This document shows positions 8,801-11,800 of a stretch of 64,000 nt of DNA, piece by piece. The notes under the pieces are model-generated. The model was not told the origin of the DNA and searched no databases. It saw only the letters and a program-made list of their open reading frames with translations. The position numbers and the translations under genes were made by a program. Positions within the stretch are counted from its first letter, which is position 1; every line of letters starts with the position of its first letter. This stretch comes from Chrysomallon squamiferum (taxonomy: Eukaryota > Animalia > Mollusca): assembly GCA_012295275.1 (NCBI GenBank), contig CM022671.1, forward strand, positions 20,460,001 through 20,524,000, in the 5' to 3' direction.

Positions 8801-11800
8801 ACACACATTCACATGCATACAAATGTAATAAAACAAATACACCCATATTCAAACTTTACTTAATGTAAAGAAACAATGTAAAAAAAAAAAAAAACCTAAT
8901 TGTTTTAAATATCTTTTCCATTAAAACAGTTCAAGTTCAAAAATAAATGGGATACCGGTGAAAAGAATTTGGTTATTTTAGTCATGCTTTGAGTTCAAAA
9001 CAAAATAATACCAAAATAACAGAACTGAATAAAATGCACAAGCCATAAAGTTATTCCTTAACTGTAAGTAATTTGTGTTACTTTATATAAATTTTAGAAT
9101 TATTAATTTGTTTCATTAATATTCCATTAACATAAATAATATATGTCACTGAATCAGTAAAAAAAAGATATCTTTTACTTTGTCAACCCCCCTCAAAAAA
9201 TAATCAAACAGTGTTAATAGTAATAATGAAGATAAAGATACAGAACAACACATATCAGAAATATCCTGCCAAAATTGTAAATTCACATCTTTATACACTT
9301 TTAAACACATTAAACATAACAGATTTAGCCTAGTGAAATACAGAATCTAGTTTCTAAAACTGTCTTATGACTTATATTCAAAATCCATGTTATAGTTATC
9401 TTAGTGAAAATATCAAATATATATATATATATATATATTTTTTTAAATGTAACGAAAAAGAAAAAGGATTAGGATAATTAAATTTTTTATGCTGATCAGT
9501 AAACCAAAAAAACAGATAGATAAATACAAAATTAAATAGGGATTATTTACATATAAATGCAAAATAAATATTATAGAAAAAGATTCTTTTTCACAATTCC
9601 ATGCTAGGAAGGTCATCACAAAAACAAAATTAATAATAATAAAATAAAATAAAATAACATAAATAATTTAAAACTTATTTGCTGCCATATAATTTTGTTT
9701 TTTGTTTTTTTGTTACATGACAGAATCAGAAAAATGGCTGCATTATACATACAAAATTAATTATTTTTAATTCATTTATTTTTTTATTATTTTAAATCAT
9801 ATGGAAGGCAGCAAATAACTTTGCAATTTAACAATATTATGCCAGAGTTAAACAAAACTACACATAATTTAAATTTTGCTAAAATAATATTAATGACAAT
9901 AATACTATTATTTCAAGCAAAAATCCATTTTTTTTAGAATAATAAAATATGACAAACTAAATATTTGTTAATAAACATTTATTAGTTTATTTTAAACCGA
10001 GTTAAAGAAGGAATATATTAATATTTATTTACCTGCCATATTTCTGTGTCCTAATCTTATATTTACTAATAATATATTTGTAACATAATATAAAATTATT
10101 TTACTGTATTTAAAAGCAAATATTTTAATAACTATAATGTATGCAAGCAGAATAGTAATAATAATAATAATAATAAATAAATATTTAAATCTTTTTTATG
10201 TGAAAGGCTAAATAAAATTGTTTTCAACAATACACTATCCAAATTAAGCATGAAATCTATTAATAATTCTTAATCATCATCATTAATATTAATATTACAA
10301 AGACAAATTAATTAAATTAATGATGTTTAAGACTGGCAAACACTGACAAGGAACAATCCAGCTCATTTCCTATTTTACATACAAATACACTAATAAAAAA
10401 TAATGATTTTAAATGTGTCAAAAATCATGATAAAATTTAGAAAAAGAATAATACAGGATAGAAACTAATTTCTATAAATACATTTTTGTAATCTATGAAT
10501 ATTCATGTATGGGTTTAAAATAAATTGTTTAAATGAATAATTTTTTTATTAATATTATTATTATTATTTTTATTAAAACAAGCCAGTCCAGTGAGAGTCG
10601 TGATATTAAAATATTTATTTATGAATGCTTAATATGAATATTCATTAAGGATAGATAAAAGTGCTGGATTATTCCTTTGTCCTTAGATAAATCCAACAAT
10701 AATTACAAGAGAATAAATAGCAAAATAGAATTATTGCATATTAAAGAATTGTAACACTTTTCAAAGTAAATATTCTATCATCAGATATTAATGTTTTAGT
10801 GGATGCATTATCATGAATATTCATAATGATAAAGCGTGGGAGTTGCCAAGTGATTAATGCTTTGTAATAAAAGTGACAGCTGGTAATAGTTCATGACAAA
10901 AATGGCTAAACAGTAACCATTTACAATAAATGTGGCTAATGGGTAATAGTTCATGATAAGTGGAAATACTGCATGATAAACTTAGATGGTCATGAAGTAA
11001 GAGGCTGTTTGGTAAAAGTTTCATGTGAAAAAAGAAAGAAAAAAAAAGACCTAAATAATGATAAAGTGGTTAAATACTAAATTATTGAAAGCAATGCCTA
11101 AATTCATGATAAACATTCATAACAAATCAGAGTGACTGGATTGTTCCTTGGAGGAAAACAACAAAATCAATCTAAGAAACAGAAGCACAATGACTGAAGA
11201 GCACACAGTAAATTATATTTGTTTTTCTTTTTTTTGGTTTTTTTACTCCACCTCATTAATGGAATTTGTTCACAGTCGCAACCTCGTCCTGTCAAATTCA
11301 TTTTCACAACCTTCTCAAATGGAACAGGTACATGTGGAATTTCCTCTAAAAGTTTGATGGAGAAGGAAGGAAAATGGAATTAACACTAAATTAAAAAACG
11401 ATTAGTTCAAATATTGTAATGATACATTCAACATATTAACTGATCAGTGCAAATTATGTTTGTGTATATTGTTAATATCATTAATCAGCAAAACTAATTA
11501 TTTATAATCACAATATATAATGAAAATAAACAAAAATGTGTAATTCCCAGATGATTGATGAATGCAATAAAATCTGGAATGTTGTAATAAATGAAATCAG
11601 ATTTATATATTTACATGTATATATTAACATATAAATGATGATTAAAAAAAGATTTAAAAAAAAATTATGTGCAATTTTAAAATATTTAATACCAGAATCT
11701 CTTAAGTTTTAACCCACCAATCCTAAATTATTATAAATTATGAAATAATTCATAGTTGTTTTGTTTTCAAACATTGCTTAATTGTAAAACACATGATACT

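Follow-up and report, generated by a model that had tools for sequence, protein, structure and literature searches.

The 64,000-nucleotide stretch of Chrysomallon squamiferum DNA analyzed here (assembly GCA_012295275.1, contig CM022671.1, positions 20,460,001 to 20,524,000 of the forward strand; hereafter the window) carries the gene for PFKFB, the 6-phosphofructo-2-kinase/fructose-2,6-bisphosphatase, on its minus strand at 5818..24730. Besides 14 constitutive coding exons, the gene contains one alternative exon (11252..11345, minus strand, 94 nt), which lies in the 7.5-kb intron between 14355 and 6858. We think it very likely that this is a real alternative coding exon of PFKFB, and its inclusion is predicted to swap the last hairpin of the bisphosphatase domain and to remove the NTHR segment together with the C-terminal tail.

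The upstream constitutive exon (14355..14442, minus) encodes 29 residues, followed by the G that opens a split codon, and it ends in the donor CAG|gtactt. Its product, ELERQEN...AYFQDKTS, stops at 14355 and contains CHQAV, the second catalytic histidine motif. Downstream of the intron, the canonical exon (6731..6858, minus; 128 nt) completes the split codon as G|TA and encodes this valine plus 42 residues. The alternative exon enters in the same phase as the canonical exon, phase 1, and leaves in phase 2. It is preceded by a pyrimidine-rich tract and acceptor (11346..11372, minus; ccttccttctccatcaaacttttag|AG at 11346/11345), and it starts at the split codon G|AG, encoding glutamate followed by 30 residues. 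A sequence-only reading had proposed an exon with an acceptor, the canonical phase and 30 paralogous residues in this intron, and we find all three on the minus strand. That reading had given the feature as 11167..11345. The start at 11345 stands, but 11167 belongs to the stop of the read-through frame and is not a splice site. Since this frame crosses a donor, AG|gtggag at 11252/11251 (donor 11246..11251, minus), the exon is defined as the 94 nt that end at 11252. Beyond the donor the frame runs on through 11167..11251 (minus) to a TGA at 11169-11167. This extension of 28 residues, which is low in complexity and lysine-rich past exon residue 30, would be the tail of the protein if the donor were left unused. 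It is not conserved, since the frame of the closest relative, a genomic sequence designated P0030, stops after five residues (RWSNN). The alternative exon is present in one copy in the window.

Comparing the alternative exon with its downstream neighbor shows that the two are homologous. Aligned without gaps to the first 30 canonical-exon residues, it is identical at 9 of 30 positions with a BLOSUM62 score of 47, a score that was reached in none of 200,000 shuffles. Of the 1,073 30-mers that contain no stop on this intron's sense strand, the runner-up scores only 24. When profiles of 9 alternative and 16 canonical exons were aligned with hhalign, 29 columns matched in the identical register (P = 5.2e-5). 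Based on the shuffles, the intronic 30-mers and the profile alignment, we take the two adjacent exons to be tandem duplicates, the alternative exon being an ancient copy of the first 30 codons of exon 6858-6731. The shuffles and the hhalign register thus support the old exon duplication put forward from the sequence.

We then find the same exon in other molluscs. Of the 28 mollusc PFKFB proteins found with the neighboring exon, 22 were inspected, and 3 of these 22 full-length sequences carry an orthologue of the alternative exon directly after AYFQDKS. P0025 is the PFKFB-like isoform X8 of Mya arenaria (XP_052779616.1), an automatic NCBI gene model; P0014 comes from a Logan transcript assembly and groups with a protein of Pomacea canaliculata in a 90% cluster; and P0023 is a protein from a 2.4-kb JGI contig. 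The exon parts of all three match the window at 11364-11251 in tblastn, with E values of 5.7e-8 for P0014, 3.6e-6 for P0025 and 0.017 for P0023. The Mya exon is 60% identical to that of the window, and its length of 97 nt is inferred from one extra codon. Five genomic sequences (L003 and P0030-P0033) bring the total to eight other sequences with the exon at the same junction. In L003, a clam-like genomic contig from a metagenome scan, the alternative exon has 97 nt and shares 84% identity with that of Mya. Bordered by tctcacag|GA and CTCAG|gtatat, it follows 1,157 nt after the orthologue of the upstream exon, whose protein is 100% identical to that of Mya. P0030-P0033 are the four hits at E <= 0.001 of a HMMER scan of 1.84 billion representatives with a profile of the window and L003 exons. 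All four are stray open reading frame (ORF) calls on large assemblies that contain the exon, and the exon of P0030 is 87% identical to that of the window.

Both splice sites of the exon are conserved. In six of six genomic versions, ag|AG and AG|GT stand at the same codon positions; the exon is either 94 or 97 nt long, always 1 mod 3, with entry and exit phases kept; and its frame is open in nine of nine versions. An orthologous exon with a preserved frame in relatives, the absence of which would have told against the sequence-only reading, is therefore present. Further searches were less productive. A profile of five alternative C-termini returned only the three known proteins, from 2,437 candidates among 5.8 billion clusters, and a word search among longer proteins with the 58-residue read-through ORF gave no match. 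In the metagenome scan, contig L001 has the canonical exon only, contig L002 ends ~540 nt past the upstream exon with no alternative exon in that stretch, and the scan with P0023 did not recover P0023's own contig. Most of the mollusc gene sets examined either lack the alternative exon or call it wrongly.

The exon also bears a pattern of coding constraint. The window and L003 share 17 of 30 residues, even though 10 of those 17 codons differ. The proportion of differing sites is 0.80 at synonymous positions (pS, saturated) and 0.35 at nonsynonymous positions (pN), compared to a pS of 0.95 and a pN of 0.06 for the neighboring constitutive exon. These values are what a translated exon would show under purifying selection weaker than that on the core exons. 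We give constraint as pS and pN and not as dN/dS, since pS lies beyond the Jukes-Cantor limit.

The transcript-derived proteins indicate the way in which the exon is used. For P0014 and P0025, tblastn within the window aligns the tail to the canonical exon read in the +1 frame, at 6866-6792 (E values of 1.6e-4 and 0.15, respectively), which implies that both exons are present in the mRNA and that the alternative exon is a cassette in those molluscs. The tail of P0023 resembles the +1-frame tail by eye. In the window, the canonical exon following the cassette would be read in the +1 frame for about 22 codons, up to a TAG at 6791-6789 that its Cys-Arg codons, TGT-AGA, create in this frame. The sequence-only reading had offered mutually exclusive or alternative-last-exon isoforms. 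Exclusivity fails, because the exons differ in length (94 versus 128 nt) and exit phase, so that a transcript in which the last exon directly followed the alternative one would meet a stop after 2 codons, and because the mRNAs of P0014 and P0025 hold both exons instead of one. The exon is a cassette, not one of an exclusive pair, in these two and probably also in the third transcript, P0023. Given the conserved donor dinucleotide and 1-mod-3 length, we regard the cassette as the ancestral design. Recursive splicing was also considered and rejected: the joined 14355|11345 sequence rebuilds no GT donor.

RNA from this species comes from Logan contigs of four small runs (X1-X4) of one study, labeled metatranscriptomic, which were placed on 601 nt around the alternative exon only. 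A contig from X2, 540 nt long at a depth of 6.8, aligns to the window from 11347 to below 10980, and its 28 loose letters are identical to window positions 14357-14384. These letters are the end of the upstream exon, which gives the junction 14355->11345, the two ambiguous letters being the shared AG. Thus, use of the acceptor in this species is shown, and the junction predicted by the sequence-only reading exists in RNA, although in a single contig. The same contig passes through the donor into the downstream intron. Its 144-nt overhang, its reach of 510 nt past the acceptor and its end at ~10836 are assumed values, with at most 28 letters of the record lying beyond the low end of the stretch. 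In X1, depth is 16.6 in a contig over ~10856-11299 and 5.8 in the one that extends into the upstream intron, and X3 has an unspliced contig over 11156-11537. The X1 and X3 contigs overrun the low end of the stretch by 124 and 163 nt, respectively, and their ends prove nothing. X4 has no contig on the 601-nt stretch.

Two minor observations concern the sequence beyond the donor. Position 11233, in the read-through region just beyond the donor, is T in the window but C in X3 (a single contig at depth 2.9). At 10880-10960 (minus), downstream of the exon, there is a short direct repeat, tcatgaactattacc, in two copies ~60 nt apart. The estimated ends of the RNA contigs from three runs (~10817-10856) fall near this repeat, and either an RNA end or an assembly break could account for them.

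The predicted product retains every catalytic residue. Whether reached through the cassette or by read-through, the alternative form would have the same core, consisting of the full kinase domain, all bisphosphatase catalytic motifs, a paralogous terminal hairpin and a short disordered tail. The catalytic motifs, which we take to be the RHGE histidine and the second histidine in CHQA, are encoded 5' of the swapped segment, LTR|HGES by exons 17254-17177 and 16856-16773 and ICHQAV by exon 14442-14355. What the alternative form would lose is the invariant NTHRE(K/R)P stretch and all three mollusc tail types (the NVD...TVP type, the acidic type ending RAMS and the NGS...C.C type). In this species, read-through would instead end the protein after its 28-residue unconserved tail. 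Because it would lack every mollusc C-terminal tail type, the alternative form would likely, by analogy, be an enzyme freed from C-terminal control.

We modeled the exchange with AlphaFold2 on the matched Mya arenaria pair, using a 17-sequence alignment. The alternative model has strands at 406-412 and 418-424 (pLDDT 71-81), compared to 406-413 and 416-423 in the canonical model, and its frame-shifted tail (429-449) has a pLDDT below 50. Over residues 237-427, the alternative model aligns with the whole of 1FBT, the isolated rat liver bisphosphatase domain of 190 residues, at a Z score of 22.1 and an rmsd of 4.2 with 177 residues aligned. The Pfam profile His_Phos_1 (PF00300) covers 239-416 in the alternative form (148.6 bits) and 239-421 in the canonical form (152.3 bits), so it still reaches the first strand of the swapped hairpin. 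The kinase domain profile PF01591 scores 288 bits on the Mya pair, and in phmmer the alternative exon can be aligned with human PFKFB3 as far as residue 412. The fold is therefore predicted to be kept, as the sequence-only reading had suggested.

Several observations weigh against a cassette that encodes a second, folded enzyme. On the 601-nt stretch, the donor at 11252 is not seen used in any contig, neither a joint nor a loose end falls there, and the X1, X2 and X3 contigs are unbroken across it. Because the RNA contigs also cover the intron, a terminal exon and a splicing intermediate are inseparable, and the contigs show no 3' end. The exon of P0023 is only 33% identical to that of the window, and its tail has no tblastn match in the window. 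The overall confidence of the structure models is low (mean pLDDT 66 and 64), and the alignment behind them includes canonical sequences, which means that the hairpin may have been imposed on the alternative exon and that the models speak for compatibility, not proof. Finally, the stop of the cassette form lies 58 nt before the last exon junction and could make the transcript a target of nonsense-mediated decay.

The first of these points leads to a reading that we consider possible, though we doubt it: in this species the exon serves mainly as an alternative last exon, its acceptor used and its donor ignored, with the protein ending at the TGA at 11169-11167 and polyadenylation further downstream. 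It departs from the cassette reading only in how the message ends. The exon does combine an internal acceptor that is used with its own in-frame stop, and to that extent the alternative last exon of the sequence-only reading is compatible with the read-through contigs. The junction-bearing X2 contig runs past the acceptor and through the donor (510 nt, length assumed), and X1 depth over ~10856-11299 is three times that of the upstream intron. The donor, gtggag, is also the least consensus-like of the gene's 14, and its weakness fits contigs that read through it. However, a purely terminal exon would need neither the AG|GT donor nor the 1-mod-3 length that all six genomic versions share, P0030 included, and the read-through tail, at 5 residues in P0030 versus 28 here, is not conserved. 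Moreover, the first AATAAA lies ~550 nt beyond the stop, the contigs have no poly(A) end and cannot show where an RNA ends, and the same contigs would be expected from a splicing intermediate. Past the acceptor, then, the RNA of this species represents one of two things, a terminal or retained-intron form that ends at the TGA or an intermediate leading to the cassette form.

If the exon is a cassette, it could instead be a conserved poison exon, in which the frameshift and premature stop send the mRNA to nonsense-mediated decay and tune the amount of PFKFB, with no second protein made. The length of 1 mod 3, the weak donor and the position of the stop at 6791-6789 would all suit this role, and only 3 full-length proteins bearing the exon were found among 5.8 billion clusters. 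We nevertheless think it unlikely. Residues are conserved in spite of saturated synonymous sites, as described above, and the conserved residues are those of the paralogous hairpin, which the family profile still matches. Decay needs a stop or a frameshift but not a frame that is open in nine of nine versions. The distance rule for nonsense-mediated decay in mammals is 50-55 nt; a distance of 58 nt borders on it, and the rule may not hold in molluscs. It is hardly credible that the exon has no function, whether as a decayed pseudo-exon or because its frame is open by chance in an AT-rich intron: the read-through frame past residue 30 is lysine-rich and unconserved and the word search with the 58-residue ORF was empty, but the shuffle test, the eight orthologues with conserved splice sites and the spliced RNA contig exclude chance.

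A cassette that ends the frame beyond itself can be compared to known systems. In KRAS4A/4B, including the upstream duplicate exon 4A ends the frame, and the downstream duplicate 4B stays in the mRNA untranslated. The KRAS stop sits within the included exon itself, whereas in mollusc PFKFB the stop arises in the downstream paralogue through the frameshift. Tandem duplicated exon substitutions, as presented in the portions of two papers that we consulted (PMC9741552, PMC8373072), likewise involve adjacent ancient homologous exons and isoforms that differ in one segment. The PFKFB pair is unlike them in that the exons differ in length and exit phase, and substitution occurs by frameshift and not by exclusion. 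PFKFB is not mentioned in the literature on tandem-duplicated exons that we searched.

The isoforms of vertebrate PFKFB, among them PFKFB2 with its heart-specific exon 15, also differ at the 3' coding end. In the consulted part of a 2026 review (PMC13446353), this diversity is placed chiefly at the regulatory ends, with a conserved catalytic core. The mollusc form would differ in exchanging the last hairpin of the bisphosphatase core as well as removing the tail. The exon-6 skip of human PFKFB4, as described in the section of the paper available (PMC12639319), is an unrelated event. The nearest precedent is Mya arenaria X8, which has the same junction, an orthologous exon and the +1-frame tail, but it is from a bivalve, its exon has 97 nt, and it exists as a database model only. 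Our literature searches found no paper on the alternative exon, on mollusc PFKFB isoforms or on PFKFB exon duplication. Duplicated exons, alternative PFKFB C-termini and, in this one automatic NCBI model, the exon itself are thus known already. The device appears undescribed, namely a duplicated core hairpin, kept in gastropods and bivalves, that enters the protein through a frameshift of its own paralogue.

This use of a duplicated exon is unusual, in that a frameshift of its own paralogue takes the place of a mutually exclusive choice, and the exchangeable piece would be part of the catalytic core fold itself, retained across gastropods and bivalves. Fructose-2,6-bisphosphate governs the balance of glycolysis and gluconeogenesis, and molluscs, including vent snails with symbionts, meet long hypoxic periods. 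A tail-less PFKFB is for this reason a candidate for resetting glycolytic control. In molluscs, homologous exon pairs of coq-2 and of the oyster alternative oxidase are linked to anaerobic or to hypoxic and stress conditions, according to the abstracts (PMC7434440, PMC5589949). These are different genes with a classic choice of exon, as far as the abstracts go, whereas the link of the PFKFB exon to hypoxia is only proposed. A bolder proposal, which we hold tentatively and consider rather improbable, is that PFKFB has been a two-state enzyme since before the split of snails and clams, with the frameshift switch yielding a tail-less form of altered kinase:phosphatase balance that is used in hypoxic or anaerobic metabolism alongside the coq-2 and alternative oxidase switches.

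The rest of the gene was placed by comparison to Gigantopelta aegis isoform X2 (P0001), which maps to the window exon by exon from 24730 down to 5824. By tblastn, identity is 85-100% on 13 of 14 exons. At exon 15148-15107, the match (64%) covers the first 14 residues and then continues into the intron. The window exons match residues 1 to 458 of the Gigantopelta protein, giving the two-domain bifunctional layout of PFKFB, and for one PFKFB exon the closest database relative is 90% identical. The last coding exon of the canonical form (5818..5877, minus; 22 residues) was placed by reading its splice sites and by tblastn. The 13 constitutive donors read GTAAG in nine cases, GTAAA in one, and GTGAGA, GTATGT, GTACTT and GTTAGT in one each. 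At the other end of the gene, the first coding exon (24730-24671, minus; 20 residues) matches the N-terminus of Gigantopelta X2. Other mollusc isoforms begin differently, which makes alternative first exons likely.

The acceptor of the canonical exon is tandem (6855-6861, minus; tttttag|TAG|ATC). Using the first AG gives TS-V-DLPYLK, and using the second would give TS-DLPYLK, as in the Gigantopelta X2 model. Other molluscs have a single residue at this position.

The junction after AYFQDK.. carries other insertions and endings as well, with a 28-residue in-frame insertion in Pomacea canaliculata X5 (P0015) and an unrelated 54-residue terminal tail in Octopus bimaculoides X4 (P0007), and it appears to be a mollusc hot spot of C-terminal alternatives. 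Elsewhere in the protein, bivalve isoforms have two homologous versions of a 33-residue kinase-domain segment, FNVGEYRRAAT..., as seen in Mya arenaria X2/X3 (P0026/P0027) and Dreissena X2/X7 (P0009/P0010), which are probably the products of a mutually exclusive exon pair. The window has one copy only of this segment, at 20133-20038. With tblastn, a weak test for such short queries, we found no further exon in the window for the other mollusc tail types, the second FNVGEY version, the Pomacea X5 insertion or the Octopus X4 tail. Outside PFKFB, the ORF list shows a second gene on the minus strand at ~37500-39500, with RRM-like exons (e.g. FGFVEFNSPEEAASAFDRMKGQEVDGRQVFLDFA) and glycine/arginine-rich stretches, which looks nucleolin-like.

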